From Escherichia coli (GTDB lineage Bacteria; Pseudomonadota; Gammaproteobacteria; Enterobacterales; Enterobacteriaceae), in the NCBI GenBank assembly GCA_009729775.1, contig GCA_009729775.1_4081.1: a stretch of DNA of 64,000 bases; one strand, given 5' to 3'. Position 1 is the first letter of the stretch, and every line of letters starts with the position of its first letter. The translations under genes were made by a program, and so were the position numbers. Below the pieces are notes generated by a model, which worked only from the letters and a program-made list of their open reading frames with translations, was not told where the DNA came from and did no database searches. Shown in pieces: positions 1 to 64,000 of the stretch.

Positions 1-586
1 AAACATCAAACTCGGCACTTACACTAGTTACATTATCACTGACAATTTTAAAAATTGATTTGATGCGTTCATGTAGTGGCACTTTTGATTCATTTTCAAC
101 TTCAATATATGCTTGCATTGCTGCAATAGCATGATATGTTCCGCTACCTACGGCGGTGATTCGTGTTTTCGGTTGAAGAACTGAAAAATCTTCTTGAACT
201 TCATAAATTGTATGATTGTGAAGAATGATGAACTGTCCACCACCTACTTCTTGTGAAGGATCACGAGAACCCCATTCCTCTTTGAACATTTGACGAATAA
301 TAGGAATAACTTTCAGTACTAAGTACTGTGGAAACGTCTCATTTGCATCTTGCTGTGGTAGATTCAAACTGTAAGTAAGAAGTTGACCCATACGGAATGA
401 TGTGGTGTAACCAATCGCCATAATTTCTTTTGTACGGGTCAAACCAGCATCATCATTGATTTTAATGAATTCTTTCTCAAATACTTTAGGCTCAGTTTGA
501 ACGGACTTTGTGAACCCGTTACTTCCCAGTTTGTCCCCTGCAATAAAAGAAGTTACACCATCAGTGTGTGCAATGATACATGTCAT
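1..586 (-). CDS. HslV/proteasome-type Ntn-hydrolase peptidase (3' end outside window)
   Basis: Minus ORF open from ATG at 586 to window edge (absent from track, no stop in window); translation MTCIIAHTDGVTSFIAGDKLGS...AIGY...AVGSGTYHAIAAMQA resembles HslV (Thr2 nucleophile, GSG motif); GGAG 8 nt upstream. Confidence 0.6.
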   Translation of the reverse strand, partial: MTCIIAHTDGVTSFIAGDKLGSNGFTKSVQTEPKVFEKEFIKINDDAGLTRTKEIMAIGYTTSFRMGQLLTYSLNLPQQDANETFPQYLVLKVIPIIRQMFKEEWGSRDPSQEVGGGQFIILHNHTIYEVQEDFSVLQPKTRITAVGSGTYHAIAAMQAYIEVENESKVPLHERIKSIFKIVSDNVTSVSAEFDV

Positions 587-843
587 AAAATAGCTCCAAT
601 TGCAAATAAAGTTGTATATAAAATATAAATCAATGTACCTAATAACATTAGACACACCAAATATGATGTTGCCAGAACATAATAAATTATTGCTTCAAAC
701 TTTGAATTGAACTTCATTGTTGTGTTATCAATAAAGCCATTTTTGTAATCTTTGTAAATGAAAACTGTTAGGAAAAGTACAGTAATATACATCACTACTG
801 TAGCATAAAAAATAATAGATGTCAAATTTTGGATGTTTGTCAT
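583..843 (-). CDS. small hydrophobic membrane protein
   Basis: 86 aa ORF, two predicted TM helices; ATGA-type overlap with downstream gene. Confidence 0.45.
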   Translation of the reverse strand: MTNIQNLTSIIFYATVVMYITVLFLTVFIYKDYKNGFIDNTTMKFNSKFEAIIYYVLATSYLVCLMLLGTLIYILYTTLFAIGAIL

Positions 844-913
844 AGTTATATAATCTCAATATAATTAATAACAAAGGAAGTACATCATAATCATCCTGTT
901 ATTTTAATTATTT

Positions 914-1522
914 TTATTGTTTGACTGAACCGTAAAAAACCAGTTCTGGTTTTGTTAATATTACAACATCTTCACCACGCGAACGGCTAACTTTATATAG
1001 AACGTCTGGTGGAATTCCATTTGCAGAATATAGTGTAAATAGAAAACCTACTTTAGTTGCCATTTCTTCAGTAAAAGTTGATAGCTGCCTAACTGATACA
1101 AAAGAATTATCACCGTCTTTAACATTACTTTTAATAGAAATGTTATGAAGTCCCAGTACTGAGCGATTTATCATGTATCGCTTTTCAAAAGCTACACTGA
1201 AGAATACCACAGTACATGCTGAGTTGCAATACCTAGAAACAATTAAATTTATACCATTGTCTCTAACGAAGTTTGCCATTTTAATCCCAGCATCAAAATC
1301 ACCACCTGGCGATGTGATGGTAATGGTATCATAGTGTTCTTTATCATACAACTCCATCATACGCTTTAGTGACCCATCCGTAATATCTGAGATGAAATAT
1401 ACATTACGTGTTTCAGGATTGTACTTTATCACATTTTTACTTTCAACACCAGCACTGGCTGGAAAATTTATCAACATCAGAAGCATTACTGCTTGTACTA
1501 CCTCAAGCCATAGTCTTTTCAT
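914..1522 (-). CDS. ClpP/S14-like serine peptidase with N-terminal signal/TM segment
   Basis: 202 aa; hydrophobic N-terminus (AVMLLMLINFPASAG), then ITITSPGGDFDAG...NSAC...LGLHN resembling ClpP SPGG / Ser / His motifs. Confidence 0.6.
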   Translation of the reverse strand: MKRLWLEVVQAVMLLMLINFPASAGVESKNVIKYNPETRNVYFISDITDGSLKRMMELYDKEHYDTITITSPGGDFDAGIKMANFVRDNGINLIVSRYCNSACTVVFFSVAFEKRYMINRSVLGLHNISIKSNVKDGDNSFVSVRQLSTFTEEMATKVGFLFTLYSANGIPPDVLYKVSRSRGEDVVILTKPELVFYGSVKQ

Positions 1523-1555
1523 AACAAATCCTTAATTTTGGTTAGGAAGATATAA

Positions 1556-1584
1556 ATAATATAGTACTTAAACACTTAAGTCAA
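1556..1584 (-). promoter_or_regulatory. sigma70-like promoter (TTGACT-17-TATTAT) upstream of 914..1522
   Basis: Reverse complement reads TTGACTtaagtgtttaagtactaTATTAT, then AAGGAT RBS before the ATG at 1522. Confidence 0.35.
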
Positions 1585-1831
1585 ACTTTTTCTGTACTTA
1601 ACTCAAATTTCCCTCATCTGATAATCCCCTTAGTACAATCACTGTGAAGATTCTATCACAAACCCATACCAAATGTAAAGCTTTTTTATAAGGAGTGCCC
1701 TTAATGGGGGAACCAATCGCAGGACAAGACCAATTTCCATTCACTTTAGGTGGATATTTAGTTGACGGTGTAAATATAAAAGGTACAACAATCTGTAAAA
1801 GTAGTTGTTTATTAATAAGAGGAAATAAAAT

Positions 1832-2209
1832 ATGAAAGCTATAGCAGCACAAGGTAAATTACCATTCAATATCGGCGGCTTTTGTGTAACCGCCGCTAAT
1901 ATAAACGGTGAATTGAAATATAACTTGAACATCTTTAATCAACGTTCTAGTTGTGTTTACGATCTTATCGACACTGATTTTAATGTTTATCGTTTTGTAA
2001 CTATAACAAGTTTTGATAAAGATAAAATCAGATTAGATGCAACTAAAACTGCACTAGAGATTGCACCAACTTTAGCAAAAAATACTTTTTGTATTAAGAT
2101 TGATGATAGTGCATTTGCCGAATCATTCCAGTTTCATAAAATTAAATTGAGTACTGGAGAAATGAAATATCACCCTTGGGATTTGTATTATTGTAACATC
2201 CCTGGTTAA
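1832..2209 (+). CDS. hypothetical protein (only convincing plus-strand gene)
   Basis: 125 aa ORF; GAGGA RBS 7 nt upstream of ATG; followed by hairpin terminator. Confidence 0.55.
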   Translation: MKAIAAQGKLPFNIGGFCVTAANINGELKYNLNIFNQRSSCVYDLIDTDFNVYRFVTITSFDKDKIRLDATKTALEIAPTLAKNTFCIKIDDSAFAESFQFHKIKLSTGEMKYHPWDLYYCNIPG

Positions 2210-2210
2210 C

Positions 2211-4054: not shown

Positions 4055-4086
4055 TAAAAAGAGGAATCCAGTACTGGATTCCTATT
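4055..4086 (-). terminator. rho-independent terminator
   Basis: Perfect palindrome AGGAATCCAGTACTGGATTCCT followed on minus strand by CTTTTTATT. Confidence 0.65.
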
Positions 4087-7253: not shown

Positions 7254-8672
7254 TTAACCTAATGCGTCAATAATACTGTTTGAGAATACTTCAACTGCAC
7301 TCTCACGAATTTCTAAGATACGAGTATAATCATCACAAGTGTTTTTGTCAAATCTAAATTCAATAAACACTGGTAAGAACAGTGATGGCTCACCAGTACG
7401 CTTGTCGAATACAATGTCATTACACTCAACTGTAACCACTTTACCAATAAGTTCTTGCATTCTTTCCCAAATGGTTTTAAATGTCCATTCAGCATCTTTC
7501 TCTTTGATACCAGTACCCACATTAACTTTCAATGAACCACAAGCACTTTCCAGTTGTAAAGAACCTAGGCTTCCTTTACGTTTACCTTCACCTTCATTGA
7601 AACCAACAATACGTAAGTCCAGTTGCATTTTCAATTTCATTTTCAACTGCTTCGGAGAAGTGTGAGATTTCCAGATGCCATCTTCACATTTCAGTACTGA
7701 ACCCTCTTCACCTTCGTTCATTAGTTCACTATTGTACTCAAATGCTTCTTTGATGTTTAGAACTTTACGGAATCCAACCATACGAACAAAATCACTATTG
7801 AGTTCGTTAATTGCATCTACTAAGATCTCGCGACGTTCTTTACGTTTTACATCCCATACGCCTTCACAAAATGCATCATATGGAACAACATCCCATAGAA
7901 CGAATACAGTACGCATTGCTTCATTCTGACTGATGCTATCTTTTCCAGCTTTCTGAATTATACCGTTGCCAGTAGTGCGTGGGAGAATTGTTTCCCCATC
8001 ATTGTCCAGTACTACACCTTCACCCATAAAGACTACACCACTACTAAAACGTTCATCTTTACTTTGGATGATGTGAGCAAGACCTGCCATCTCACCATCT
8101 CGACAACCCAGGAAGTCGTATAGTTTACCATTACGGGATGTAGAAGTTAATGAACCATTAATGACAACGTGGTTCAAGTACTGACCATCCATTTTCACTT
8201 CTGATATAGCATAACCATAATCTTTGAAGTTAATGTTCTTTGCAGTCTTTTTGTCAATCAAAGAACAACGCATATATGGTTCGTCTTTGATGAATCCTTT
8301 ACCAAACACATCATTGCAGTTTTTCTCCTGAATACCACAATCAAGGTTCTTCGTGAGCATTTTACGAAGAACTTCCTGGTCATCTTCTGATACAGAACCC
8401 AGTACTGAAGCAATGAAATCACGCCCAGCATTTCCTGTCACGCCACGCTTGTAAATGCATTCTAGCTTATCAATTGCTTCATCTAACGTCATATGTTGAT
8501 ATACGTCATCAGCGTCAGGGAGCTTCTTATAGCCACTTACGATAGAAGGGTCTAGAGTATATTTCAGTACTTTTTGTAAAGTTACATTATCTTTATTTTG
8601 TTCAAGAATAGCTTTTTTGCCTAGTGTACTGCTAGTATTTTTAATGCTTTCAAGAATTGCTAAAATGCTCAT
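7254..8672 (-). CDS. ATP-dependent DNA ligase (T4 gp30-like)
   Basis: 472 aa; N-terminus GKKAILEQNKDN resembles T4 ligase; adenylation motif SEVKMDGQ (KxDG); length and layout match T4 DNA ligase. Confidence 0.85.
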   Translation of the reverse strand: MSILAILESIKNTSSTLGKKAILEQNKDNVTLQKVLKYTLDPSIVSGYKKLPDADDVYQHMTLDEAIDKLECIYKRGVTGNAGRDFIASVLGSVSEDDQEVLRKMLTKNLDCGIQEKNCNDVFGKGFIKDEPYMRCSLIDKKTAKNINFKDYGYAISEVKMDGQYLNHVVINGSLTSTSRNGKLYDFLGCRDGEMAGLAHIIQSKDERFSSGVVFMGEGVVLDNDGETILPRTTGNGIIQKAGKDSISQNEAMRTVFVLWDVVPYDAFCEGVWDVKRKERREILVDAINELNSDFVRMVGFRKVLNIKEAFEYNSELMNEGEEGSVLKCEDGIWKSHTSPKQLKMKLKMQLDLRIVGFNEGEGKRKGSLGSLQLESACGSLKVNVGTGIKEKDAEWTFKTIWERMQELIGKVVTVECNDIVFDKRTGEPSLFLPVFIEFRFDKNTCDDYTRILEIRESAVEVFSNSIIDALG

Positions 8673-51950: not shown

Positions 51951-52295
51951 TTACATATTTGTACCGAACAAAACGGAACTTTGAATGCCATTAATCGACA
52001 CTTCATGTACATATATATTTTGTCTGAATACCTGAAGCAATTGAACTAAACTTTGTTGCATAATAATATGCATATGTACATTATCAAAGGCCGTTTCGTA
52101 TTGGAATCGTGCAGCTTCATCTTCTATGAAATTCGGAACTTGGACTGGATTTTCAAAATTTGTCCTTGTACTGAACTGTACATCATTGTCCTGTACCTTA
52201 ATACCATATGAATTATCATTGTTATCAACTACATCAAATTCAATTAAACTACCATCTTTACTGACGTTTACTATATAAACCGAAAATCGACTCAT
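51951..52295 (-). CDS. family A-like paralog
   Basis: motif EDEAARFQYETAFD. Confidence 0.5.
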   Translation of the reverse strand: MSRFSVYIVNVSKDGSLIEFDVVDNNDNSYGIKVQDNDVQFSTRTNFENPVQVPNFIEDEAARFQYETAFDNVHMHIIMQQSLVQLLQVFRQNIYVHEVSINGIQSSVLFGTNM

Positions 52296-52807
52296 AAACC
52301 TATTTCCTCTAAATCTTTGACAAATGTATCATAATCCGATAATGACAAAAATATGTCTGTACTGATGTTTTGACGTAATGTATTAAACAAATTATGTACC
52401 TGTAATAAATCAGGTGCATAAATCAGGGATTGCTGGAAATACGATTCTTCTGTATCTAATATATCCCTGCACTCTATTTCACGAACTCGTTGGTATATTG
52501 AATTTAATAATACATTTTCATCTTTGAGCATTGGAAGGTATCGGATGTACATGTGCTCCATCATCTCATCCTGGATTGAACCCCTGAACTGCAACACGTA
52601 TTCAAAACACATCACTACATCTTGTAGGTAATTGGCACTGTAATTATTGCTGTAAACAATCTTATGACTTCTGAACTCATCATCATTTCTGAACCAATTG
52701 TCACCTACTTTGGTGTACTTATGACTAAGCTTCCCATCCTCCAACGCTCGAATGAACTTCATAATGTTAATTGCAAAATCATATGAATGATGCTTGTGTT
52801 GATGCAT
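52292..52807 (-). CDS. family A paralog
   Basis: motif TEESYFQQSLIY. Confidence 0.6.
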   Translation of the reverse strand: MHQHKHHSYDFAINIMKFIRALEDGKLSHKYTKVGDNWFRNDDEFRSHKIVYSNNYSANYLQDVVMCFEYVLQFRGSIQDEMMEHMYIRYLPMLKDENVLLNSIYQRVREIECRDILDTEESYFQQSLIYAPDLLQVHNLFNTLRQNISTDIFLSLSDYDTFVKDLEEIGL

Positions 52808-52815
52808 TTTTTACC

Positions 52816-53010
52816 TCAATTCTGTCCGAAAAAATAACCAAAATGTTTAAAGCAAGAAAGCATTACTATGTTCATCACTCTATCATCAAATTCATCTTGT
52901 GTTTCTGCACATAATGTTTCACAGATATTCAAATGTAATAATTCAAGCTGGAAACTGTCGGTGAACCAATCAAACTTACGGTATTTTTGTTTAACATCAA
53001 CTGTAAGCAT
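52816..53010 (-). CDS. small hypothetical protein
   Basis: 64 aa ORF filling the gap between neighbours. Confidence 0.4.
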   Translation of the reverse strand: MLTVDVKQKYRKFDWFTDSFQLELLHLNICETLCAETQDEFDDRVMNIVMLSCFKHFGYFFGQN

Positions 53011-53011
53011 A

Positions 53012-53635
53012 CTATATATCCAACCCTTTTACAACATCTACGAAATGTTCAAACACTTCTTTTGAAAAATAACCACCTTCACAAAAAAGCATACTAAACG
53101 GTGGCAGCATGTCCGATAACTCTTTAGCTAAATTGATTTCTGCTCTTAACTCTTGAACATCAATGATATCATGTACTAAAGATAATTGAAACATGAATGC
53201 ATCTACATCTTCATTCATTTCTGAATTGTAATATAACTCTTCAGGGAATTTGTCGGTTTCGTAATAATAAAAAACTTTATTGTTGAACACACCACTAATA
53301 GGAACATCATTTTCATCTTTCTTTGAAATGTTTGTTTCCCATGACTCTATATTATTAGGAACAAAAAAATCATAGGCTGACTTTGAACCCTGTACTGAAT
53401 CCAACTTTATTCCATAATATTCCGTATCCATGTATTTCTGCTGTAATGTAATACCACGTGTACTGACATTCACTTGGAATATATCATCTTTATCTGGAAC
53501 ACTAAATGGAATACATAACACTGAATTCTCAGGGTATTTGGCAATGAATGCATCCAGCACTTTATTAAGCACCGGAATGGCAATTTTACTGTACTGCATC
53601 AAATCATACATTTTAATTCTGGTCATATCATTCAC
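53012..53635 (-). CDS. family A paralog
   Basis: motif DVDAFMFQLSLVHD. Confidence 0.55.
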   Translation of the reverse strand: MNDMTRIKMYDLMQYSKIAIPVLNKVLDAFIAKYPENSVLCIPFSVPDKDDIFQVNVSTRGITLQQKYMDTEYYGIKLDSVQGSKSAYDFFVPNNIESWETNISKKDENDVPISGVFNNKVFYYYETDKFPEELYYNSEMNEDVDAFMFQLSLVHDIIDVQELRAEINLAKELSDMLPPFSMLFCEGGYFSKEVFEHFVDVVKGLDI

Positions 53636-54167
53636 CTGTGTATGTTTTCACCCTTAGCGATTCAAAATCCCATACATCACTGATTGTACCATTGTGCCTG
53701 TAATCATAATATTCTACTAATACATTATACAATAACTTCAACGATACAAATTCATGATTCCACGGAGCTTTATTCTCATGAACACATTTGGTGATATAAG
53801 GTATAATATATAAACTAAACAACACTAATGGTGAATGTATACATTGCATTTGAAAATATTCTTCTTCTTGCATACAATGTTCAGGAATAATTAGATCATA
53901 ATGTGTCTCAAATAAATGTAAACCTATTGTGGTTTTTTTCGTATCACATGCGTACCATATTGTACTATCCGAAATAAATGGAATGATACCATTATTGTTT
54001 GCAATGTACATCATATGGTAAGAGCGATTTGTCTTGTTAAATATCTCGATACTTTCGATATTACTACAAATCATGTATTCAAGGCAATCAATGATCTTAT
54101 CTTTAAATGTACCAATTTCATTGAATGACATTGCTTTCTGTACTTTTGATACTGTTGTACTGCTCAT
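53628..54167 (-). CDS. family A paralog
   Basis: motif QEEEYFQMQCIH. Confidence 0.55.
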   Translation of the reverse strand: MSSTTVSKVQKAMSFNEIGTFKDKIIDCLEYMICSNIESIEIFNKTNRSYHMMYIANNNGIIPFISDSTIWYACDTKKTTIGLHLFETHYDLIIPEHCMQEEEYFQMQCIHSPLVLFSLYIIPYITKCVHENKAPWNHEFVSLKLLYNVLVEYYDYRHNGTISDVWDFESLRVKTYTGE

Positions 54168-54706
54168 ATGTTATCCTTAAAAAAATCCAAATACTCTTCA
54201 TTGAAAGCATATGTATCATCTTTTTTGTTATGCACCACATAATCATAAAGAGCTATGAATGCAGGGATTATGATCTTACATGATTTATTATTGTATTTGT
54301 GGTACTCCAAATCAACGGTGTTCAATTTAGCAATAAGCATAGCAACAAAGATATCTTCATGGCGATGTACTGTACTGTACTGAAAATACTCATCCTCTCC
54401 AATATCTGGATGATATAACGGTATAACCAAATTATTACGAATTGACATCTTATATTTTTGTAATGCAGCTAAATGTATGAACCACAATCTATCTTCATTG
54501 AAATATGGAAAAATAATTTTGTCTGTGCTAATAAAAATTTCTTCATTTCGATTATTTGTCACAAGAGGTGCATACATTTTAATTTTTGCAGATCTAATAA
54601 TTAAATTAAAAATATAATGAATCTTATGAACTGCACTTGATGCATCTTCGTATGTACTTGGGATTATGAAACTCACTATATGTTCTCCTTTAAAATGATT
54701 ACACAT
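54164..54706 (-). CDS. family A paralog
   Basis: motif GEDEYFQYSTVH; start trimmed to MCNHFKG (uncertain). Confidence 0.5.
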   Translation of the reverse strand: MCNHFKGEHIVSFIIPSTYEDASSAVHKIHYIFNLIIRSAKIKMYAPLVTNNRNEEIFISTDKIIFPYFNEDRLWFIHLAALQKYKMSIRNNLVIPLYHPDIGEDEYFQYSTVHRHEDIFVAMLIAKLNTVDLEYHKYNNKSCKIIIPAFIALYDYVVHNKKDDTYAFNEEYLDFFKDNI

Positions 54707-54758
54707 GATAACAGCTTTGCACTTCTTTGTCAATACCAAAACGAAAAAAGCCCATATC

Positions 54759-55265
54759 TTACGATACAGGCGTGCTGGGAATGTTGATTTGGATTTCATT
54801 GTACAAATCATCAATATATAGACATGAAAAAAACACACTATCTTTTAATATATTGTTGTGATAAAGCATTTTAAATACTACATAAAAAAATAAATCAATA
54901 TCATCGTGGACTAAATTCTGCTGGAACCACCACTCGTCTGTTAAATCTTGTGCATTAAAATCATCAGGAACTTCAATGAACGACATATCACAATCTTCTT
55001 TGTACTCAAACCACATGTCGTCATTCGGATAACGTTCATGCTTCTCTGGGTAACAATTGCTGGGATTAAATGTTAAAATATTAAACCCCGTAGAGCAACG
55101 TTCTTTATTTAAAAATGTATTATTCCATACCTGATATTTTTCACCAACATCAAGCTCTTCTGTTACTGATTTTATTGCACATAATGTACTGTATATTGTT
55201 TCTATCTTGTGAACATATTTAAATGCAGCATCTAAGCTGAACTCTAAATCATACATGTACTGCAT
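54759..55265 (-). CDS. family A paralog
   Basis: motif TDEWWFQQNLVHDD. Confidence 0.55.
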   Translation of the reverse strand: MQYMYDLEFSLDAAFKYVHKIETIYSTLCAIKSVTEELDVGEKYQVWNNTFLNKERCSTGFNILTFNPSNCYPEKHERYPNDDMWFEYKEDCDMSFIEVPDDFNAQDLTDEWWFQQNLVHDDIDLFFYVVFKMLYHNNILKDSVFFSCLYIDDLYNEIQINIPSTPVS

Positions 55266-55585
55266 AAAATTACCTCAACTAAAGCAAGGACTGTATTGAA
55301 TTCCACTATACTTGTAATTCCTTGAAGGTACATGTACTTTGCTACTACATATTTCTGTACTAAATTATAATTTTTAAATTCCTCAAAATTGTAATTCAAA
55401 ATGAAATTTGTACTCAAAAATAACTTATGCATCTCTAATGCACTCTGATAATATTGGTACAACTCTCTGATATCAATACTTTGTAAATCACTTTGTTCAT
55501 ATGTATGATAAGGAATGGCTTCAATTTCAATACGATGAAACCATTCTCTTAACTTATTAATATCAAATGTATTATTCAGCTTCAT
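55244..55585 (-). CDS. hypothetical protein
   Basis: 113 aa ORF. Confidence 0.45.
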   Translation of the reverse strand: MKLNNTFDINKLREWFHRIEIEAIPYHTYEQSDLQSIDIRELYQYYQSALEMHKLFLSTNFILNYNFEEFKNYNLVQKYVVAKYMYLQGITSIVEFNTVLALVEVILCSTCMI

Positions 55586-56138
55586 AACTCAATATCTCCA
55601 TTAAACACTCATAAACACCATCAATCGCATAAGCACAAAAATTGAAATTAATTTTATGATTCTTGTGTAATGGACTATTGTGTACTGTACTAATAAGGAC
55701 ATTATAAAACAACAAACGCACTGGCACAAGCAATGAACCTTGGAAAAATTCTTCCTCTGATTTATATGTATTGTACTCTATTGTTTTGTTCGTTTCTGTA
55801 TCATATTTTACCATTACTAATGGGGAATTTTTATTATACCATGCGTACTCTAAATCATTCTTTCCAATAACAGCACCAGGTGCGAAATCCAAAAGACCAA
55901 TAACACTATGGGCATTTGGTGTATCAGGTGTATTGAATCGTTTATCAAAATGACTCGTGCACGCAATATATGTATTGTACTTCGATGGAATGATACCAAT
56001 ACATTTGTGGATGTGACGCTTGTAATCTTTCTGGGCATTATATAAGGCTGCAACAATACAAGCTAACTTTTGTCCCATAAGGATTGCATTAGCGTAGGTG
56101 TACTGAATTTCATTGCTGGTACGGTACTTCGAGGTCAT
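55572..56138 (-). CDS. family A paralog
   Basis: motif SEEEFFQGSLLV. Confidence 0.6.
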   Translation of the reverse strand: MTSKYRTSNEIQYTYANAILMGQKLACIVAALYNAQKDYKRHIHKCIGIIPSKYNTYIACTSHFDKRFNTPDTPNAHSVIGLLDFAPGAVIGKNDLEYAWYNKNSPLVMVKYDTETNKTIEYNTYKSEEEFFQGSLLVPVRLLFYNVLISTVHNSPLHKNHKINFNFCAYAIDGVYECLMEILSYEAE

Positions 56139-56421
56139 AATATTTCCTTTGCCATATCATGGGCTTAAAATCAATAACAGCTTTCTGTATCTTTTTTAAT
56201 AATAAGACATCATAACCACCCGTATCAATCACTAATTGCTGTTGGAACAATTCTTCATCGGATAATGTATTGAAATCTACAAAATAATCTGTGACTATCG
56301 AATCATTTAAATGTGCCATGTACCAACCTGAACTTCTTGAATAAATCAAATTCCACCCATCGTCATTGTCTTCTAATTCAACATAAATCATATCTGGGGT
56401 ATACATCATTTTATACTTCAT
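56110..56421 (-). CDS. family A paralog
   Basis: motif SDEELFQQQLVID. Confidence 0.6.
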   Translation of the reverse strand: MKYKMMYTPDMIYVELEDNDDGWNLIYSRSSGWYMAHLNDSIVTDYFVDFNTLSDEELFQQQLVIDTGGYDVLLLKKIQKAVIDFKPMIWQRKYYDLEVPYQQ

Positions 56422-56965
56422 AACTATATCCTTGCATTAATAAATCATAAACTACATGGACTAAATTTAATTGAATATAAAATTTTAAACCTTTAATTAA
56501 TGGATTCAAATGCATTGTACTGAATAACATTAGATACATCATCTCATGCGGTTTTGTGATTAATGATTTTTGAAATACTTCAGCTTCATCATAAGGGTCT
56601 ATGAACTGAAATTTGTCTTCATCATAATTTGTATTGGAATGCTGATATATAAAATAATCATCATTGGTATTGTACCACAAATACCCTTCGAATCCTGTAC
56701 TAACACCTTTGGTCAATGGGGATGCTGATACTGGATTTGAACTGATTAATGCACCTACATCAACAATCCCCGTTGTATCATATTCGATTTCAACATCAAT
56801 GTCAATATCAATGTATTTCCTTGCGATATCTGCGTTTATGGACAAATACAAACTACCACCTGTCCTCTGACTCAGGATTCCATCTATCTGCGATATAGGA
56901 TGGTTGTTATTGAGGATAAGCATTATTGTACTTATCTTGTGTGCTAATAACTCTATCTCATTCAT
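56411..56965 (-). CDS. family A paralog
   Basis: motif DEAEVFQKSLIT. Confidence 0.55.
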   Translation of the reverse strand: MNEIELLAHKISTIMLILNNNHPISQIDGILSQRTGGSLYLSINADIARKYIDIDIDVEIEYDTTGIVDVGALISSNPVSASPLTKGVSTGFEGYLWYNTNDDYFIYQHSNTNYDEDKFQFIDPYDEAEVFQKSLITKPHEMMYLMLFSTMHLNPLIKGLKFYIQLNLVHVVYDLLMQGYSYEV

Positions 56966-57298
56966 AATTTACCTTATGGATTCGGGTGCAATAAATGATC
57001 TTGATAACTTAAATGCTCTTGTGATATTGCACTTAAATAATAACTAAAATTTTCAATACCACCCTTTAAATGTATATTGTAATACAACTTAATACTTACT
57101 AATAAAGAATCATTTAAATCATTTATTGCTTTTGTATTAACCACTTTCATTAATGTTCTTCTCTTAAAAATCGTTTGATAGCATAATCTAAATAAAATTC
57201 ATAACACATGCTATCTCTGTTCTTTATCCATATTTTGTAATCGGATTTTATATTACTTAACAAATAATTTGTATTAATTGTGTAATAATCTAATCGCC

Positions 57299-57688
57299 CT
57301 AATCGTGCCATTTAATAGGATACTCCTTTCCTTGTACTACATAAGATATAATCCATCCGTAATGAATAGGACTATTCTTTTCTCCTTTAGGAATAAAATA
57401 TAAAGATGTACTAGGATTATAACTGAATAAATCATTATTGTCAAATGTAAAATGAGATAACGTTATCTTCCTTGTACTTGGACTAATAACATTCTTAACA
57501 CCAAACACGGTATCTTGATATTTCTCTGAAAATTCAAACAATGCATCTGTAATTAAATCATTGAATTCTATACATAATGGTTTAAAAGAACCATCATTAT
57601 CTTTGAATTCCTTATATAAAGAGCTTCTTGTATTCAAAAGAAATATTACTTTTTTAAGATCCTGAACTATTTCTGGATTCATATTCAT
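57299..57688 (-). CDS. hypothetical protein
   Basis: 129 aa ORF. Confidence 0.5.
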   Translation of the reverse strand: MNMNPEIVQDLKKVIFLLNTRSSLYKEFKDNDGSFKPLCIEFNDLITDALFEFSEKYQDTVFGVKNVISPSTRKITLSHFTFDNNDLFSYNPSTSLYFIPKGEKNSPIHYGWIISYVVQGKEYPIKWHD

Positions 57689-57920
57689 TTATCTCATTCT
57701 GTATCTTAAGCATCAAAATTTGCATATTAATTTTTTGTACAAGGTGCTTGATAAATTTCTGTGCCATTTCTTCTTGTTCTTTTGTACCAAGATAAAATAA
57801 CAGATTAAATTCTGATAATCGCAAAGAAAAATCTTCATCACCACCCTTTAAACAAAAATCCCTGTACTTTGTAGCGTACAAATATTGGTTTACCTTTTTA
57901 TAATACCCTGTGTTTTGCAT
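57654..57920 (-). CDS. family B paralog
   Basis: motif LFYLGTKEQEEMAQKFIKHL. Confidence 0.55.
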   Translation of the reverse strand: MQNTGYYKKVNQYLYATKYRDFCLKGGDEDFSLRLSEFNLLFYLGTKEQEEMAQKFIKHLVQKINMQILMLKIQNEINEYESRNSSGS

Positions 57921-58108
57921 ACTATCTCCGTTCGCAACGAATTTATATAATAATGAACAAATTGTTCTTGTGAACGTGTTCCAAGAAAAATAAACATATC
58001 AAACTCTGTTGTTTTTAAATTCAATGCATCTTTTGTAAAATTCCTGTTGAATTCCCTGTACTTTTGGGTCTTCCATTCTTGATTAATTGTCTTGTATATC
58101 GATTTCAA
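57890..58108 (-). CDS. family B paralog
   Basis: motif FIFLGTRSQEQFVHYYINSL. Confidence 0.55.
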   Translation of the reverse strand: MKSIYKTINQEWKTQKYREFNRNFTKDALNLKTTEFDMFIFLGTRSQEQFVHYYINSLRTEIVCKTQGIIKR

Positions 58109-58409
58109 TGATTCTCCCTGACATACCTTGTATTAGCTTATCATACATATCGAGCATCACTTTTTGAATATTAATTAGTACTGGCATCGTGCAAATATCA
58201 ATGTCGTATACTAAGCTGTACTGGAATAATTCATCTTCCTGCATTTGTACTAAATTAGGTAAAGGATAATTGTCTGCCTCTTCATCCTGATACTTGAAAT
58301 GCATAACACCATCCTTTTTGTACAAAAGAATGTCAATATCACCTAACTCTTCTGCATAACCAAAAATACATATACTCGATGTTTTTGCTATATTAAATTT
58401 CATATACAT
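58083..58409 (-). CDS. family A paralog
   Basis: motif QEDELFQYSLVYD. Confidence 0.6.
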   Translation of the reverse strand: MYMKFNIAKTSSICIFGYAEELGDIDILLYKKDGVMHFKYQDEEADNYPLPNLVQMQEDELFQYSLVYDIDICTMPVLINIQKVMLDMYDKLIQGMSGRIIEIDIQDN

Positions 58410-58411
58410 CC

Positions 58412-58753
58412 TTATACATAAATTTGATAGACATTTTGAACAAAATACTTTGGAAGACTACTATATGATATCATCTGCCTTTGTACTTCCTTCATCTCTT
58501 CCAATGTCAATCCCAAAGAATCATCGTGTACTATCATGTACTGAAACTCGTCTTCTTCAGAGATATCAAATAAATTCGGTACTGCAATTATATCAATACC
58601 TACCATCCAAAAAAAAGAATTATTACTTTTTCTGTACTCAAAAAAATTCAAAGAAGAACCACTCTGTAAATCAGATACCATAATGGAACATTCATCGTTA
58701 CGTACAATACAATTGAATTTACGCATTATCTCCACCTCTCTCCGTCTGTACAA
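58412..58753 (-). CDS. family A paralog
   Basis: motif SEEDEFQYMIVHD. Confidence 0.55.
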   Translation of the reverse strand: MYRRREVEIMRKFNCIVRNDECSIMVSDLQSGSSLNFFEYRKSNNSFFWMVGIDIIAVPNLFDISEEDEFQYMIVHDDSLGLTLEEMKEVQRQMISYSSLPKYFVQNVYQIYV

Positions 58754-58971
58754 GAGTACTGGTACGTTGTCGTTAGGGTAGGGACCATGTTTGTAATGGG
58801 CATGTTGTTAACAATAACCGTAACAGGCATAAGAATCGTCTCTTCTCTACTCTGTCCTGTCCTTGTGCAATTCATCTTTTGCATTTCATCTGAATCCATG
58901 AAATACAATACAAATGGTGCAATCCCAAGAACAATACACAAGACGATAAGGAAATTTAAAAAATTTAACAT
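58726..58971 (-). CDS. small membrane protein (start uncertain)
   Basis: 81 aa; hydrophobic N-terminus FLIVLCIVLGIAPFVLYF. Confidence 0.35.
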   Translation of the reverse strand: MLNFLNFLIVLCIVLGIAPFVLYFMDSDEMQKMNCTRTGQSREETILMPVTVIVNNMPITNMVPTLTTTYQYSCTDGERWR

Positions 58972-59030
58972 AATTTTTACCCTATGATTAACGTTAGTGT
59001 ACTATATCAGTAATGAAAAGTACTATCAAG

Positions 59031-59417
59031 CTAGTATTGCACTGTTCTAATGAAAGTGCCTGAACTCATGGATTTAAGCTTATGAACCTCTTCCTGTATA
59101 CCCTTGATTAACCCTAAAGGTATAGGTACATCATGTACTAAGCTGTACTGAAAGTATTCTTCTTCAGATAAAGTACTAACATCTGGAACTCCAATTTTAG
59201 TTAGATAATCTTGATGTGTTGACCAATAAATTATATCTTCAGTAGAATTGTACTCCCCATATACTGAACAATATTGATGAATATCTTTCCTGTACCCTTG
59301 AGCAATAAAGAACTTATCTACTGCATTACCAGCATTAATAGAATTCACTTCGATTGTCACAGTACTTGAGCTTGTATAACTCTTAATACTCAACTGTGTG
59401 TTCTTCATAATCACCAT
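59031..59417 (-). CDS. family A paralog
   Basis: motif SEEEYFQYSLVHD. Confidence 0.6.
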   Translation of the reverse strand: MVIMKNTQLSIKSYTSSSTVTIEVNSINAGNAVDKFFIAQGYRKDIHQYCSVYGEYNSTEDIIYWSTHQDYLTKIGVPDVSTLSEEEYFQYSLVHDVPIPLGLIKGIQEEVHKLKSMSSGTFIRTVQY

Positions 59418-59727
59418 TAGGCTCCTGTTTAGATTCTTTCATTAGTACTATCATCTTATGTACTAATGGCATAGGGAACTCTAAATCCCATACTAATGAT
59501 TCCTGGAAGTATTCCTCTGGTGATAAAGTACTTAAATCTTTAATATCAACGTGCTTGTATATTTTATTTTCGTAATTAACAAATGATATATATAAATCAC
59601 TAACATAAGAATCATAGGTAATTGTGAATGGCTTACCCTTGTAATCCATTACATCTCTACATAGACTACTTTTGATATATGTATGTTCAAATGATTTATA
59701 TACCTTGAGTTGTATATTAGTTTTCAT
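59383..59727 (-). CDS. family A paralog
   Basis: motif SPEEYFQESLVWD. Confidence 0.6.
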   Translation of the reverse strand: MKTNIQLKVYKSFEHTYIKSSLCRDVMDYKGKPFTITYDSYVSDLYISFVNYENKIYKHVDIKDLSTLSPEEYFQESLVWDLEFPMPLVHKMIVLMKESKQEPNGDYEEHTVEY

Positions 59728-59992
59728 ATTTCTCTTTATTAGCTTGTTTGGTTTTATAGTGAATTAAATCTATTAATGTAATCAAGTACAACTTCAAAAA
59801 GTACTCTTGATGGTTCGTACCTAATGATACAAAGAATTTATGCTCATAAATTAAAACCTGTTTCACTTCAAAAGGACACTTAATCCTCTGTATAGGTTTA
59901 AGTAAATGGTAGTACTTGTATAATCTATTATGCATTTCTAATTCAGATAGTACTTTCATATTAAACACATACTCCATTAGCTGTAGCATCAC
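59717..59992 (-). CDS. family B paralog
   Basis: motif FFVSLGTNHQEYFLKLYLITL. Confidence 0.55.
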   Translation of the reverse strand: MMLQLMEYVFNMKVLSELEMHNRLYKYYHLLKPIQRIKCPFEVKQVLIYEHKFFVSLGTNHQEYFLKLYLITLIDLIHYKTKQANKEKYEN

Positions 59993-60182
59993 GTAAAGCT
60001 GTCAAATACTTCTGTACTGCTTGCTCTTGCTTATTTGTACCTAAAAGTATATACATCCATAATTCACTGTAATGTACATCTTGTGTATAAGGGTTGTTGT
60101 AACTTTTTGATAATATAGCATCAAATTCAGATGCATGAACCCTTGTGAACTTAAGCATATCTTGTTGTGTTATGATTCTCAT
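59961..60182 (-). CDS. family B paralog
   Basis: motif YILLGTNKQEQAVQKYLTAL. Confidence 0.6.
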   Translation of the reverse strand: MRIITQQDMLKFTRVHASEFDAILSKSYNNPYTQDVHYSELWMYILLGTNKQEQAVQKYLTALRDATANGVCV

Positions 60183-60394
60183 ATCTTTTCCTGTATAAGC
60201 TTCTTAAGAATCTCAATATATGAATTAACAGTTCTCTCTTGATGCTGTGTTCCTAAGAGTGTCAGTACTATCATATCTGAACGCAAAAGATTTTTTTCAA
60301 GTTCACTTATATCAGTTCTTGAATCAAGTGCCATATATTTGTGATTATTCTTCCTGAATAGTGCCAAGTACTCTTGATTTGATATTTCCTTCAT
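60179..60394 (-). CDS. family B paralog
   Basis: motif VLTLLGTQHQERTVNSYIEIL. Confidence 0.6.
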   Translation of the reverse strand: MKEISNQEYLALFRKNNHKYMALDSRTDISELEKNLLRSDMIVLTLLGTQHQERTVNSYIEILKKLIQEKI

Positions 60395-60618
60395 AGTCTA
60401 TCCTTGATGCCATTTAAAAGTGCTCTAATATGCTCATTGACAAAACGCTCTTGGGAATCTGTGTTTAGAGTGAGAAGCATTCTTAAATCTGAACTTTTTA
60501 TATGATATTCTAAATCATTCTTTGATTCTCGCATAAGTTTCTGAAAGGATGAGAAGTGTAATCCCATGAGTTCAATGTATTCTGCTGTTCCTAGGGGTTT
60601 GTGTATATGTTTGTGCAT
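60391..60618 (-). CDS. family B paralog
   Basis: motif LLTLNTDSQERFVNEHIRAL. Confidence 0.55.
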   Translation of the reverse strand: MHKHIHKPLGTAEYIELMGLHFSSFQKLMRESKNDLEYHIKSSDLRMLLTLNTDSQERFVNEHIRALLNGIKDRL

Positions 60619-60830
60619 TTTAATTGTATTACCCTTTTGAGTGTATTAATGTAATTATACACATTGGCTTCTTGATAGTTAGTTCCTAGAGTAGCTTGAA
60701 CGTAGATTTCATTTAACTTAATGATTTTATCAGTATCTGGTAGTTTTGATGTGTTAATGGCAAATAACTTCAAAAACAGTCCATTTATGATTGTTAGGTA
60801 TTCTTCTTCTGTAATGATTTTCATTTGCAT
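60591..60830 (-). CDS. family B paralog
   Basis: motif VQATLGTNYQEANVYNYINTL. Confidence 0.6.
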   Translation of the reverse strand: MQMKIITEEEYLTIINGLFLKLFAINTSKLPDTDKIIKLNEIYVQATLGTNYQEANVYNYINTLKRVIQLKCTNIYTNP

Positions 60831-61036
60831 TTTCTCAGTACTGATTCTTTAAGTTCATTGATGTAGTCCTCAATGTATTGCTCTTGTAAGTTAGTTCCAA
60901 CATATAAAAGAACTCTTAAATCGGCTCTAAGTACTTCTTTGTCATCATCATCTATATCAGACAGTGTTATGTTTAAGAATTTACTTGCATTCTCTATAAG
61001 TAATATTACTGAATCACCTTCGCTTAAAATTTTCAT
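60821..61036 (-). CDS. family B paralog
   Basis: motif LLYVGTNLQEQYIEDYINEL. Confidence 0.6.
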   Translation of the reverse strand: MKILSEGDSVILLIENASKFLNITLSDIDDDDKEVLRADLRVLLYVGTNLQEQYIEDYINELKESVLRKCK

Positions 61037-61244
61037 AATCTCTTTTTGCTTTCCTCGCCAAAAGGTACATATACGATTCTTCGTATTGTGCTTGATAGTT
61101 TGTGTTTAAGAGTCGAAACAACTTCTGTTCTGCTAGAACGAGTTGCTTATCTTCATAACAACGATAGCGTATCAACTTTTTGTATTCGATGTTGATTACA
61201 TCCATTACTATAAGCCCATGTTCATCATCTGTCAAGTGTTTCAT
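61014..61244 (-). CDS. family B paralog
   Basis: motif FRLLNTNYQAQYEESYMYLL. Confidence 0.55.
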   Translation of the reverse strand: MKHLTDDEHGLIVMDVINIEYKKLIRYRCYEDKQLVLAEQKLFRLLNTNYQAQYEESYMYLLARKAKRDYENFKRR

Positions 61245-61470
61245 GTATCTTTTCCTTAATAGTGATTTTAAGAGATTTAATTATACGTTCAACGTGATAC
61301 TCCTGTCTATCAGTTCCAAGAAGGTATGGTAGTGCTTGGAATAGAGCTTCCGCATTCTTTTCCTCTGGGGTTTGGTTTGGATCATTAGGAAGTTGATTGG
61401 CATATCTCTTGGCACTAACTAATCTCTCGACGTATTCATTATATGTTAAGTATATCATTTCATTTTGCAT
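61225..61470 (-). CDS. family B paralog
   Basis: motif LPYLLGTDRQEYHVERIIKSL; close paralog of the next gene. Confidence 0.6.
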   Translation of the reverse strand: MQNEMIYLTYNEYVERLVSAKRYANQLPNDPNQTPEEKNAEALFQALPYLLGTDRQEYHVERIIKSLKITIKEKIHETLDR

Positions 61471-61696
61471 TTACTTTTTCCTTAATAGTAATTTTAAGAT
61501 ATTTAATTATACGTTCAATGTGATACTCTTGCCTATCAGTTCCAAGAAGGTATGGTAATCTTTGGAATAAAACTTCTGCACTCCTTTCTGCTGGGGTTTG
61601 GTTTGTGTTGTGAGGAAGTTTATTTGTAAGTCTTTTGGATTTATCTAGTCTTTCTGTTAACTCATCATGTGTTAAGTATATCATTTCCTTTTGCAT
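61460..61696 (-). CDS. family B paralog
   Basis: motif LPYLLGTDRQEYHIERIIKYL. Confidence 0.6.
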   Translation of the reverse strand: MQKEMIYLTHDELTERLDKSKRLTNKLPHNTNQTPAERSAEVLFQRLPYLLGTDRQEYHIERIIKYLKITIKEKVNAK

Positions 61697-61923
61697 TTAA
61701 TGTTCCTTACGTAAATTGTCTGGATTAAACAATCAATCCACGTTTGAATATATTGGTTTTGATACTGTGTGCCTAAAAGACTCTGCATTTTAAACTCTGC
61801 TTCAAGTTCATATCTCTTTTCTATAGAAAAGCTTAAATGACCATATTCCCTATCGTATCTTCTATGAGCTTCGCCAAGTCTATCAAATCTTTCTGATAAT
61901 CTGATGTTATTAATTTTATTCAT
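61681..61923 (-). CDS. family B paralog
   Basis: motif MQSLLGTQYQNQYIQTWIDCL. Confidence 0.6.
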   Translation of the reverse strand: MNKINNIRLSERFDRLGEAHRRYDREYGHLSFSIEKRYELEAEFKMQSLLGTQYQNQYIQTWIDCLIQTIYVRNIKCKRK

Positions 61924-62210
61924 CGCTCAGTACACCTTAGTGGACGGGTCATTTGATAAAAGTACAGCTTACCTCTGATTTCCATTAGTAATTCATTTAA
62001 TACGCGTTCTACCTCTTGTTCTTGATAGTTCGTGCCTAACAATGCACCCATCTTTAACTCACGCATCATAATCATCTTCTTACTGTGTTGAATTTCTGGG
62101 TTGTGATAGATTGTATTACGTTTAAGAGTAATTTTTGCCATACGCTCGGTATATTCATCTTTACTTAAATTAATCATTTTCATGTTAATTACCCTTACAT
62201 TTATTTTCAA
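61920..62210 (-). CDS. family B paralog
   Basis: motif MGALLGTNYQEQEVERVLNEL. Confidence 0.6.
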   Translation of the reverse strand: MKINVRVINMKMINLSKDEYTERMAKITLKRNTIYHNPEIQHSKKMIMMRELKMGALLGTNYQEQEVERVLNELLMEIRGKLYFYQMTRPLRCTER

Positions 62211-62415
62211 TACTATTCATGAGTTCTATAAGATAGTTTTCTACCTTACCTTCCTGATAGTTAGTCCCTAGGAAGTTGCACAACACGGCTTCTATAATTT
62301 TGATTTTCCTGATATCCGACTTCAATCTTTTGTTATTGAATATTTGAATCCTTATATCTCTGGATGCATTTAAACGTTTTTGATAGTCATGGTAAGTTAA
62401 ATGAATCATTTTCAT
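62185..62415 (-). CDS. family B paralog
   Basis: motif LCNFLGTNYQEGKVENYLIEL. Confidence 0.6.
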   Translation of the reverse strand: MKMIHLTYHDYQKRLNASRDIRIQIFNNKRLKSDIRKIKIIEAVLCNFLGTNYQEGKVENYLIELMNSIENKCKGN

Positions 62416-62630
62416 TTACGTTTAACCTCTCGCTGGAGGGCATCAATTAACATTAGTACAGCATTCTCTTGATAGTTTGTTCCTAAGACTGAAAGCATCT
62501 TTATCTCATTTACTAAAATCAACTTCTTTGAGGGTTCAATAATGTGACTATCATAAACGGCCTTACGTGCTGGATAAGTTTTCGCCAGTATAACATAAAA
62601 TTCGTCTTTACTTAAATTAATCATTTGCAT
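62412..62630 (-). CDS. family B paralog
   Basis: motif LSVLGTNYQENAVLMLIDAL. Confidence 0.6.
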   Translation of the reverse strand: MQMINLSKDEFYVILAKTYPARKAVYDSHIIEPSKKLILVNEIKMLSVLGTNYQENAVLMLIDALQREVKRK

Positions 62631-62839
62631 TTACTTTTAACCTCTTTCTGTAGAGCGTCAATCCATAGATCTACATACATTTGTTGATAGTTTGTGTCTA
62701 TTAGTGCACCTACATAGAGTTCAGCTACCATTGCGTGCTTTATGTCAATAGGGATGCTCTTATCAGATTGAATCTTTCTCCTTCTGCTTCCACATGTTTT
62801 CAGGAGCCTGATGTATTCAAAACCTTGTAAATTTCTCAT
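62621..62839 (-). CDS. family B paralog
   Basis: motif GALIDTNYQQMYVDLWIDAL. Confidence 0.55.
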   Translation of the reverse strand: MRNLQGFEYIRLLKTCGSRRRKIQSDKSIPIDIKHAMVAELYVGALIDTNYQQMYVDLWIDALQKEVKSKCK

Positions 62840-63051
62840 ATTTTGGATACCACCTTGTTACGTAAGGAACTTAATAATACGTCAGTGTAGATGTTTTGAT
62901 AGTTTGTTCCTACGAATGCACCCAACTTCATTTCAGCTATTATAACACATTTGTCCTCTTGTGCAATAGACTTGTCTAAAGAAATACTAACAACTTTCCC
63001 TCTTATAGTTTGTAACCTCCAATGATACTGATACTCATTAAGGATTATCAT
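62836..63051 (-). CDS. family B paralog
   Basis: motif GAFVGTNYQNIYTDVLLSSL. Confidence 0.6.
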   Translation of the reverse strand: MIILNEYQYHWRLQTIRGKVVSISLDKSIAQEDKCVIIAEMKLGAFVGTNYQNIYTDVLLSSLRNKVVSKI

Positions 63052-63298
63052 TCTCTCGTCTCCAGATTTCGGTTCTCATGTGTTGGCAGTGTGCATCAAT
63101 ATATTGCTCTATCGATCTGGCGATTGCTGTTTTATCAGTGCCTGTCATCAGTACAAGCATCTCTGCCTCACTATGAATTAAACGCATGATATCATAGGGT
63201 AATATTTCAGATACTGTATCATAGTGTTTGTGTGTCAGTGTCTGCAATAGTTTACAATACATTTTGTGATTTAGTCTTTGTCGCATTGTTTCTTCCAT
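63038..63298 (-). CDS. family B-like paralog (divergent)
   Basis: motif LVLMTGTDKTAIARSIEQYIDA. Confidence 0.45.
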   Translation of the reverse strand: MEETMRQRLNHKMYCKLLQTLTHKHYDTVSEILPYDIMRLIHSEAEMLVLMTGTDKTAIARSIEQYIDAHCQHMRTEIWRRENDNP

Positions 63299-63543
63299 TC
63301 TCTTCTGGCTTGACGGGTTTTTTCTGATATTTCGTTTCTCAATGCAGAGATATATCGTAGAGTGAACAGTTCTTGATAGTTAGTCCCTATGAATTTATTA
63401 AGATATACATCAGCGTTGACGATATCAGCTTCACGGGAATTATAAAGTTTATTGTTCGTGCGAAGGGTGTTTAGAAGAGAGAAGAGGGCAGTCTGATACT
63501 CAGTGCTTGATAAAGTTTTCATATTTTTCCACAATTCGTTCAT
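63271..63543 (-). CDS. family B paralog
   Basis: motif NKFIGTNYQELFTLRYISAL. Confidence 0.6.
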   Translation of the reverse strand: MNELWKNMKTLSSTEYQTALFSLLNTLRTNNKLYNSREADIVNADVYLNKFIGTNYQELFTLRYISALRNEISEKTRQARREWKKQCDKD

Positions 63544-63757
63544 TTAGTTTTATCTGTATAAGATCCATTAGTTGTTCAAGATAATCGGTACAATATTTCT
63601 CTTGATATTGGGTTCCCACAAAGTACAGCAACCATAGCTCATGAACTTTAACTTTCATCTCGTTCCATGAAAGTGCATCGTCATCGTAGATTACTCTTGC
63701 TTCTGGGGTGAGCTTTCTAACTCTAATTGAATATTCATCGTCAGTTAAGTGTTTCAT
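63500..63757 (-). CDS. family B paralog
   Basis: motif LLYFVGTQYQEKYCTDYLEQL. Confidence 0.6.
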   Translation of the reverse strand: MKHLTDDEYSIRVRKLTPEARVIYDDDALSWNEMKVKVHELWLLYFVGTQYQEKYCTDYLEQLMDLIQIKLNERIVEKYENFIKH

Positions 63758-63972
63758 TTACATTTATCCCTTATTAGATTTGTGAGGGCAACTATGTGTG
63801 CAACAACATACTCTTCCTGAAAGTTCGTCCCCAGTACAGCCATCATGCGTATATCGGTGGTGTTTATCCTGTGTTCCCTTACACATAAACCTTCTTTGTG
63901 AGGAAGTGTAAAATATTTGTTTATTGCAGCAATGACAATTTTATTCTTCTCGGTGATACTTAAATGTTTCAT
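63754..63972 (-). CDS. family B paralog
   Basis: motif MAVLGTNFQEEYVVAHIVAL. Confidence 0.6.
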   Translation of the reverse strand: MKHLSITEKNKIVIAAINKYFTLPHKEGLCVREHRINTTDIRMMAVLGTNFQEEYVVAHIVALTNLIRDKCK

Positions 63973-64000
63973 AGTTTACTCCTGATATAATTCTGAAGTG

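Follow-up and report, generated by a model that had tools for sequence, protein, structure and literature searches.

The closest described counterpart of the motif studied here is HIP1 (GCGATCGC) of cyanobacteria, a short palindrome with an 8-bp optimum that occurs about once per gene in both coding and non-coding DNA. It is associated with cognate methyltransferases, and its function has stayed unexplained for decades. It is reported to be conserved above control motifs (PMC5861425). Uptake sequences (USS/DUS) and Chi are also short motifs. They are enriched at least 10-fold, fairly evenly spaced, read by a dedicated protein and used to tell self from foreign DNA, and they are asymmetric and orientation-dependent. 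We analyzed a 64,000-nucleotide stretch from an Escherichia coli assembly (GCA_009729775.1, contig GCA_009729775.1_4081.1; the whole stretch is called the window), in which an earlier reading made from the letters alone (the sequence-only reading) had noticed the palindrome AGTACT and its 8-bp form CAGTACTG and had likened them to HIP1. That analogy held. Like HIP1, AGTACT was far above expectation genome-wide, exceeded a codon-aware null in a frame-independent way, was conserved above controls and showed turnover. It is not HIP1 proper, as its sequence is CAGTACTG and not GCGATCGC, and it is found in a phage genome instead of a bacterial chromosome. Also unlike HIP1, it sits in a genome purged of other palindromes, with a strand-specific variant zone alongside. 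In contrast to USS/DUS and Chi, AGTACT is palindromic with symmetric flanks, so it carries no orientation bias of the polar Chi type, and it has no link to competence or RecBCD. Hyper-abundant palindromes of unexplained function were known from cyanobacterial chromosomes. The sequence comparisons suggest that the AGTACT array is a palindrome of the HIP1 class newly seen in a phage, with an added trinucleotide-free island.

Megablast analysis of positions 20,000–28,000 gave 99.5% identity to Escherichia phage 121Q and 97–99% identity to phAPEC6, G17, Sharanji and others. Judged by these matches, the window is from a 121Q-like Asteriusvirus, a RaK2-like jumbo myovirus with a genome of about 350 kb. 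Its GC content was 33%, and the minus strand held nearly all open reading frames. Genes were called by us with a greedy procedure (142 in the window). For genome-wide counts, we assembled 350 kb from an unannotated relative, ECO103 4-12-1 (ECO103). The whole analysis consisted of sequence comparison and counting.

AGTACT was the commonest 6-mer of the window. It occurred 186 times, whereas dinucleotide-preserving shuffles gave 17.1 ± 4.4 copies with a maximum of 27. The 8-mer CAGTACTG occurred 41 times against 0.73 ± 0.78 in the shuffles (maximum 3). The sequence-only reading had counted about 40 and well over 100 copies by eye and had expected under 1 and about 20; both estimates were close to the exact values. 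The sites that it cited (the representative CAGTACTG copy at 1154–1161, and those at 4069–4076 and 7692–7699) were all present. A codon-aware null was built by shuffling synonymous codons inside each gene, which retained both protein sequence and codon usage. Coding DNA of the window contained 170 AGTACT and 37 CAGTACTG, against 49.1 ± 6.1 and 3.6 ± 1.9 under this null. Codon-shuffled counting had been proposed as a check; the excess persisted in it and was spread over the genes. Permutation of codon order gave an expectation of only 23 AGTACT. As both nulls were exceeded, codon choice and amino-acid order are both bent towards the motif.

All three reading frames contributed to the excess. 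The sites read AGT-ACT in 75 cases, xAG-TAC-Txx in 44 and xxA-GTA-CTx in 51, against expectations of 22, 14 and 13, each frame being enriched about 3.5-fold. The claim that the motif uses only the two stop-free frames therefore failed for the 6-mer. It nearly held for the 8-mer, with 2 copies as CAG-TAC-TGx, 14 as GTA-CTG and 21 as AGT-ACT. The remark that CTG is an atypical leucine codon here was correct: CTG made up 7.7% of Leu codons, yet GTA-CTG was the top Val-Leu codon pair (34 of 169). More than half of the Ser-Thr pairs (75 of 143) were encoded by AGT-ACT. Because every frame was about 3.5-fold above the synonymous null and non-coding DNA was as dense or denser, these results supported selection at the nucleic-acid level, not at the protein level, as had been argued from the letters. 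Genome-wide, the density was 4.7/kb in non-coding and 2.4/kb in coding DNA. Along genes it was flat apart from a dip at the ribosome-binding site and the start codon and a peak within the 30 nt that follow stop codons. More sites were thus present under weaker constraint.

The motif-rich part of the window was an early/middle gene region at positions 1–50,559. It contained 172 AGTACT, roughly one every 293 bp, and 40 CAGTACTG. Sites lay both inside and outside coding sequence, and 85 of the 101 genes within 1–50.5 kb had at least one AGTACT. The motif extended beyond the paralog arrays, as had been noted. The DNA ligase gene, a single-copy core gene (7254–8672, minus strand), had five sites, including CAGTACTG at 7692–7699 and 8400–8407. 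The genes for T4-type RNA ligase 1 (17001–18143; 'rnlA' in the sequence-only reading) and PNKP (14972–15904; 'pseT' there) had four sites and one, respectively. The motif was also seen inside a terminator-like stem, as had been reported. A 20-bp perfect palindrome, GGAATCCAGTACTGGATTCC, formed a terminator-like hairpin at 4063–4082 with the motif at its center and a T-run next to it on the minus strand. Some copies of USS/DUS likewise lie in terminator hairpins. The motif did not run throughout the window as first described, being missing from 50,560–58,176 and 60,936–64,000. Between these gaps, at 58,177–60,935, the normal motif resumed, with 14 AGTACT intermixed with 12 TGTACT.

The excess was not restricted to the window. 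ECO103 contained 918 AGTACT (about 8-fold enriched), 204 CAGTACTG and 2,425 GTAC in 350 kb. AGTACT was the top-enriched 6-mer in the coding sequence of this related 350-kb genome (772 vs 221, z about 51). Every 10-kb bin of ECO103 had at least 12 copies, structural and replication modules included. The peak, 61–67 copies per 10 kb, lay directly past the counterpart of the window's right end. In G17, position 1 recurred at 350,150, indicating a direct terminal repeat of 20,668 bp (350,150–370,817). The terminal repeat of Sharanji, determined with PhageTerm, is equal in length. The G17 repeat contained 132 AGTACT at 6.4/kb, the highest density found, and had a GC content of 38.4%. It was made up of tiny genes on the minus strand, every one of which had its own sigma-70-like promoter and terminator; in its repeated units a TTGACT-17-TATTAT promoter overlapped a hairpin (GGGATTGACTCCGGTCAGTCCC).

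Mapping to G17 indicated that the window ends about 1.9 kb short of the terminal repeat. The second AGTACT-free stretch, 60,936–64,000 on the minus strand, is the start of an array of tiny genes (about 70–90 aa) that runs on for this 1.9 kb, up to the repeat. GTAC was not enriched there (2.7/kb), and its few copies belonged to a repeated AGTACAGC, which is probably a codon string conserved among the tiny-gene paralogs. A mirror asymmetry at 61–64 kb was considered as evidence of an origin and was rejected, as the repeated AGTACAGC accounts for it. The counterpart array in ECO103, also beside the terminal repeat, was located at 296,097–301,096, with about 18 genes of about 70–90 aa.

At least 14 other 6-bp palindromes had zero copies in ECO103, although each was expected 8–32 times. 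These absences suggest an extreme purge of restriction-type sites. The missing palindromes included AGCGCT, AGGCCT, CCATGG, CGTACG, CTCGAG, CTGCAG, GAGCTC and GCATGC; CAGCTG was found once (31.7 expected). AGTACT is itself the site of ScaI and Eco255I, and GTAC that of RsaI. Phages normally avoid such sites, whereas AGTACT was about 8-fold enriched, the opposite of avoidance, which implies protection or no such threat.

The anatomy of the motif was graded. A maximal-order Markov model predicted 333 copies of the GTAC core in the window, where 530 were present, and enrichment grew outward through AGTAC and CAGTAC. The base 5' of GTAC was A in 57% and T in 29% of cases, far above C or G, and TGTACA was likewise enriched, 1.7-fold. 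At AGTACT, C preceded the site in 47% and G followed it in 43% of copies. The flanks were symmetric, and positions further out were nearly uninformative. As a further correction to the sequence-only reading, TTCAGTACTGAA was rare, at only 2 copies, and TCAGTACTGA was present in 10. WGTACW was tolerated, and cAGTACTg was the optimum. The two half-sites were coupled (odds ratio 2.4, p = 2.5e-5). Spacing between sites was more even than random, with a coefficient of variation (CV) of 0.80 against 0.99 ± 0.07 in simulations (p = 0.0004), and the CV was 0.80–0.85 across four regions.

Conservation was tested against TH47 over 19 kb at 81% identity. AGTACT was kept at 43 of 73 sites (59%), whereas all control 6-mers of the same composition were conserved at 34–36%. 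About 30 sites were lineage-specific on each side, so the total was held steady by turnover. Pectobacterium phage CBB (Mimasvirus) contained 90 AGTACT in 25.4 kb, 10.4-fold over expectation, and Klebsiella phage RaK2 (Alcyoneusvirus) had 35 in 15 kb of core genes. The enrichment is common to three genera with different hosts and has been upheld by selection, so the pressure belongs to the phage lineage. A role in shuffling among paralogs, which had been proposed, is not required, since the motif was genome-wide, occurred in single-copy core genes and was also present in CBB and RaK2. No AGTACT was found in 15-kb samples of XacN1 (150,001–165,000) and PA5oct (100,001–115,000; 5.1 expected). GTAC was scarce in the PA5oct sample (26 vs 42 expected). 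Both of these distant relatives showed avoidance, not enrichment. T4 showed no enrichment in a 25-kb sample (3 vs 4.1 expected), and a single 50-kb sample of E. coli K-12 had 3 copies against 11.6 expected. The sampled host DNA had about 40-fold fewer sites per kb than the phage. Full-text searches found no paper connecting AGTACT with these phages. Promoters and methyltransferases are listed in the papers on CBB, RaK2, Sharanji and G17, which mention neither the AGTACT motif nor the island described below.

The first gap, at 50,560–58,176 (7,617 bp, about 17–21 minus-strand genes), had no AGT at all on the plus strand. The window-wide AGT rate predicted 128 copies, and the rate in the rest of the sense strand predicted 144. 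As the genes are on the minus strand, their sense strand was without ACT. The absence covered all frames and intergenic DNA, and ACT was used for 0% of Thr codons, compared with 43% elsewhere. On the same strand TCT was at 0.40 of expectation, CCT and GCT were normal, and ACA and ACG were not avoided. As a trinucleotide desert the island scored 160, against 25 for the next largest, and it was the only one of its kind in the 350 kb. Outside it only one gene was ACT-free (204 nt, 4.1 copies expected), which is within chance. The edges were sharp, and no gradient of ACT depletion surrounded them.

The same zone was present in 121Q (7,511 bp), G17 (7,649 bp), ECO103 (8,213 bp), TH47 (with one exception) and Ecwhy_1. 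One edge fell at an identical alignment column in the window, ECO103, G17 and Ecwhy_1, and differed in TH47; the other edge fell within about 60 alignment columns in all five genomes. Between the window and Ecwhy_1 there were 1,474 substitutions in the island, which at random would give 61.6 ± 6.8 AGT, and 0 exist. With about 140 copies expected, none found and conservation at 79% identity, the island is a very clean selection signature. GTAC was still present there at 8.7/kb. The motif took the sense form CAGTACAG (plus strand CTGTACTG), and the nearest permitted variant, TGTACT, reached 5.2/kb. New TGTACN copies arose separately in each lineage, and AGTACN copies never did.

The proteins of the island had no match in Pfam or PADLOC, and their PHROGs matches were solely to function-unassigned groups. 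Flanking proteins had no Pfam match. The only IMG/VR relative of one island protein was 121Q itself. The island region (50500–58100) was 92.9% identical to 121Q, compared with 99.5% for 20–28 kb, and was closest to G17 and Sharanji (96.6%). As identity differed between regions, the window genome is a within-genus mosaic. No such zone was found in the syntenic part of the motif-rich phage CBB (16–60.6 kb, about 45 kb scanned), and literature searches found no precedent for a natural 7.6-kb multi-gene trinucleotide-free phage island.

Transcripts without the site of a sequence-specific RNase survive that RNase, as ACA-less transcripts survive MazF (PMC5408214). The island resembles this case, as a three-base site was kept off the sense strand of a defined gene set, in all frames and under selection. 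It differs in that ACA and ACG were tolerated and that no ACU-specific RNase is known; Pfam and PADLOC searches of island proteins and Pfam searches of flanking proteins gave no candidate for such an endoribonuclease. Kid (UUACU) and ChpBK (ACY) were also compared. MazF and ChpBK were excluded as the RNase, as ACA and ACG were not avoided. For the island alone, our best guess is that its mRNAs escape a putative ACU-cleaving endoribonuclease: complete absence of ACT implies that each copy would be very costly, and the ACA-less transcripts that evade MazF offer a precedent (PMC5408214). The island points to an undescribed activity of three-base specificity that acts on single-stranded DNA or RNA while the phage infects, and it marks about 20 function-unassigned genes that must escape such an activity.

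For AGTACT itself, we favor, with somewhat less than even confidence, a selected site array for a DNA-reading protein that is probably encoded by the phage. The motif would be a lineage-specific recognition signal in the double-stranded DNA of RaK2-like jumbo phages, and its roughly 900 copies would form a site array for a putative protein that reads the sequence and binds it as a symmetric dimer. Full symmetry, flanks included, points to duplex DNA read by such a dimer. The graded preferences, the half-sites that act additively yet are coupled, and the retention of a variant in the island resemble selection on binding energy, not the all-or-none specificity of Type II enzymes. Selection would set and keep one site every 150–500 bp where coding constraints permit. 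The array may serve to tell self from host. T4 marks its DNA as self chemically, through modified cytosine. RaK2-like phages are without this cytosine-modification pathway (PMC3622015). The array could label such chemically ordinary phage DNA as self for the reader, and the roughly 40-fold lower number of host sites, although from a small sample, is consistent with a tag of this kind. The reader might use the sites for protection, for loading replication or recombination proteins, or for modification. Even spacing, the contrast with the host and the density peak in the terminal repeat all fit a self-marking array. As in T5 and T7, the terminal repeat is presumed to be the first DNA to enter and to be transcribed. 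Should the motif be a self tag, it would reveal how self and host DNA are told apart by a phage whose own DNA is unmodified. The phage is a cultivable E. coli phage with Klebsiella and Pectobacterium relatives, which makes the question of hyper-abundant palindromes testable.

Several points weigh against this reading. No reader protein was found, and the annotations of the window contained no DNA-binding protein matching the motif. Binding and catalysis (methylation or nicking) look the same at the level of sequence and would not be separable by it. The 918 ScaI-type and 2,425 RsaI-type sites tolerated in so purged a genome are probably modified, in which case the reader would be a methyltransferase. 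ACT, the triplet missing from the island, is also the last triplet of AGTACT (chance of such an overlap about 4 in 64), which hints at a strand-specific process and not at duplex binding. Finally, the E. coli comparison rests on one 50-kb sample.

The best-surviving alternative, which we consider unlikely, is HIP-like: an orphan methyltransferase of the phage would have AGTACT as its target. The window encodes a DNA N6-adenine methyltransferase of 173 aa (25434–25955, minus strand) of the Dam family (Pfam PF05869), which the sequence-only reading had put forward as a candidate. This enzyme or another from the phage would methylate AGTACT or GTAC, and the sites would be kept or driven up through it. 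The methylation may shield them from ScaI/RsaI-type restriction, set methyl-directed timing or bias repair. The tolerance of 918 restriction-type palindromes in an otherwise purged genome implies protection, and RaK2 DNA is reported to be cut by methylation-insensitive enzymes only (PMC3622015). The Dam-family gene and an adjacent cytidylyltransferase gene were conserved in CBB and in a RaK2-like record, and among the records inspected homologues at 60% identity or above were found in RaK2-like records only. phiKp_21, chosen as a natural experiment with the nearest methyltransferase homologue outside the clade, was itself a RaK2-like fragment and hence uninformative. Against this alternative, PF05869 members of known specificity target GATC or are relaxed, and GATC itself was depleted. 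The graded flanks and the full density of TGTACT in the island are a poor fit to a strict hexamer enzyme. One-off neighbors of AGTACT were mildly depleted, at 0.80–0.87 of expectation. A drive resembling very-short-patch repair was rejected, as AGTATT (0.87) and AATACT (0.82) gave no clear signature of it. A C5 methyltransferase was also rejected as reader. Its homologues had no specificity names, and RaK2 bisulfite data indicate CpG methylation (PMC3622015). The enzyme is therefore probably CpG-specific, and AGTACT contains no CpG.

It is a good deal less probable that AGTACT is the nicking or cleavage site of a phage endonuclease that seeds recombination-dependent replication and concatemers in a T4-like manner. 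The clade does have UvsX, UvsW, gp46/47 and endonuclease VII homologues. Sites were densest in the terminal repeats, at which genomes have to be joined by recombination, and even spacing suits dispersed initiation points. Yet no candidate nuclease was linked to the motif, and cutting both strands at about 900 places would destroy a genome unless kept under tight control. Nothing in the sequence pointed to hotspots, such as mosaic breakpoints at AGTACT, though no search aimed at them was made.

We give similarly little credence to a strand-specific signal at the single-strand level, in which an enzyme with 5'-WCT-3' specificity would read ACT and so unify array and island. The enzyme may be a gp61-type primase, for which AGTACT would template pppGUACU with a pppGU start, or a sequence-preferring endonuclease of single-stranded DNA or RNA. 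The palindrome may then be a strong site on both strands, and the island a zone barred to the enzyme on the sense strand. AGTACT ends in ACT, and on just one strand the island banned ACT fully (0 found, 144 expected) and TCT partly (0.40), with CCT and GCT unaffected. A gp61 homologue is present in the clade. Primases recognize strand-specific trinucleotides that have a pyrimidine center, a cryptic 3' base and a purine start (GTT/GCT for T4, GTC for T7). Yet AGTACT as a whole is symmetric, and symmetry across all 8 bp would be unexpected for a single-strand signal. ACT is found every 50 nt or so as it is, so enrichment of strong sites seems needless. Total exclusion means a large cost per site, which suits cleavage better than priming, and motif-rich CBB had no island in its syntenic part. 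That array and island are two read-outs of one WCT-reading enzyme, with about 20 early genes kept site-free on the sense strand, is in itself doubtful. If true, a phage genome would have built in either its own natural form of the 'ACA-less mRNA' trick or a zone free of priming.

Titration or activation of the host nucleoid-occlusion protein SlmA by phage DNA is highly improbable. The SlmA site GTGAGTACTCAC has the same central AGTACT and is the palindromic site of a dimeric helix-turn-helix protein (PMC3020112), and enrichment was confined to phages that infect enterobacteria. The protein has a strong requirement for G, T, A and G at positions 1, 2, 4 and 5 and a purine at position 3 (PMC3020112). 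These flanks were missing or disfavored at phage sites: position 3 was C in 47% and a purine in about 28%, with no enrichment of G or T at positions 1–2. There were 0 exact sites in 350 kb, and GAGTACTC was found 4 times against 3.4 expected from composition. SlmA sites were rejected on this flank test.

There is next to no chance that the motif is a functionless by-product of codon usage, dipeptide content or paralog amplification: although part of the excess lay in the protein sequence (synonymous null 49 > codon-order null 23) and the window is rich in paralog arrays, such an artefact was rejected by the codon-aware null (170 vs 49 ± 6), by enrichment in all frames and intergenic DNA and in 85 of 101 genes, by the sharing of the motif among single-copy core genes and three genera, and by the excess conservation (59% vs 34–36%).

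Other features of these genomes were also recorded. An Rfam search of the window gave no match, and no tRNAs were found in the loci adjoining it. GATC was strongly depleted in the window (87 vs 236 under the Markov model; 75 vs 154 under the codon-aware null) despite the encoded Dam-family methyltransferase. It was not depleted in the G17 terminal repeat (79 in 20.7 kb), and the XacN1 sample had 0 copies against 58.6 expected. The E. coli Chi sequence GCTGGTGG was about 15-fold enriched in ECO103 (12 + 16 copies vs about 1.9 expected). Nine co-oriented copies were at 302,327–321,643, within the terminal-repeat equivalent. TAAATA and TATTTA were 3–5-fold depleted inside genes in the window and in ECO103 coding regions, which is consistent with avoidance of ATAAATA, a late-promoter-like motif described in CBB and GAP32. 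GGAGGT was also depleted in both. At 165,001–175,000 of ECO103, where a gene of 1,841 aa is located, the plus strand had 172–175 ACT against 86–96 AGT per 5 kb.

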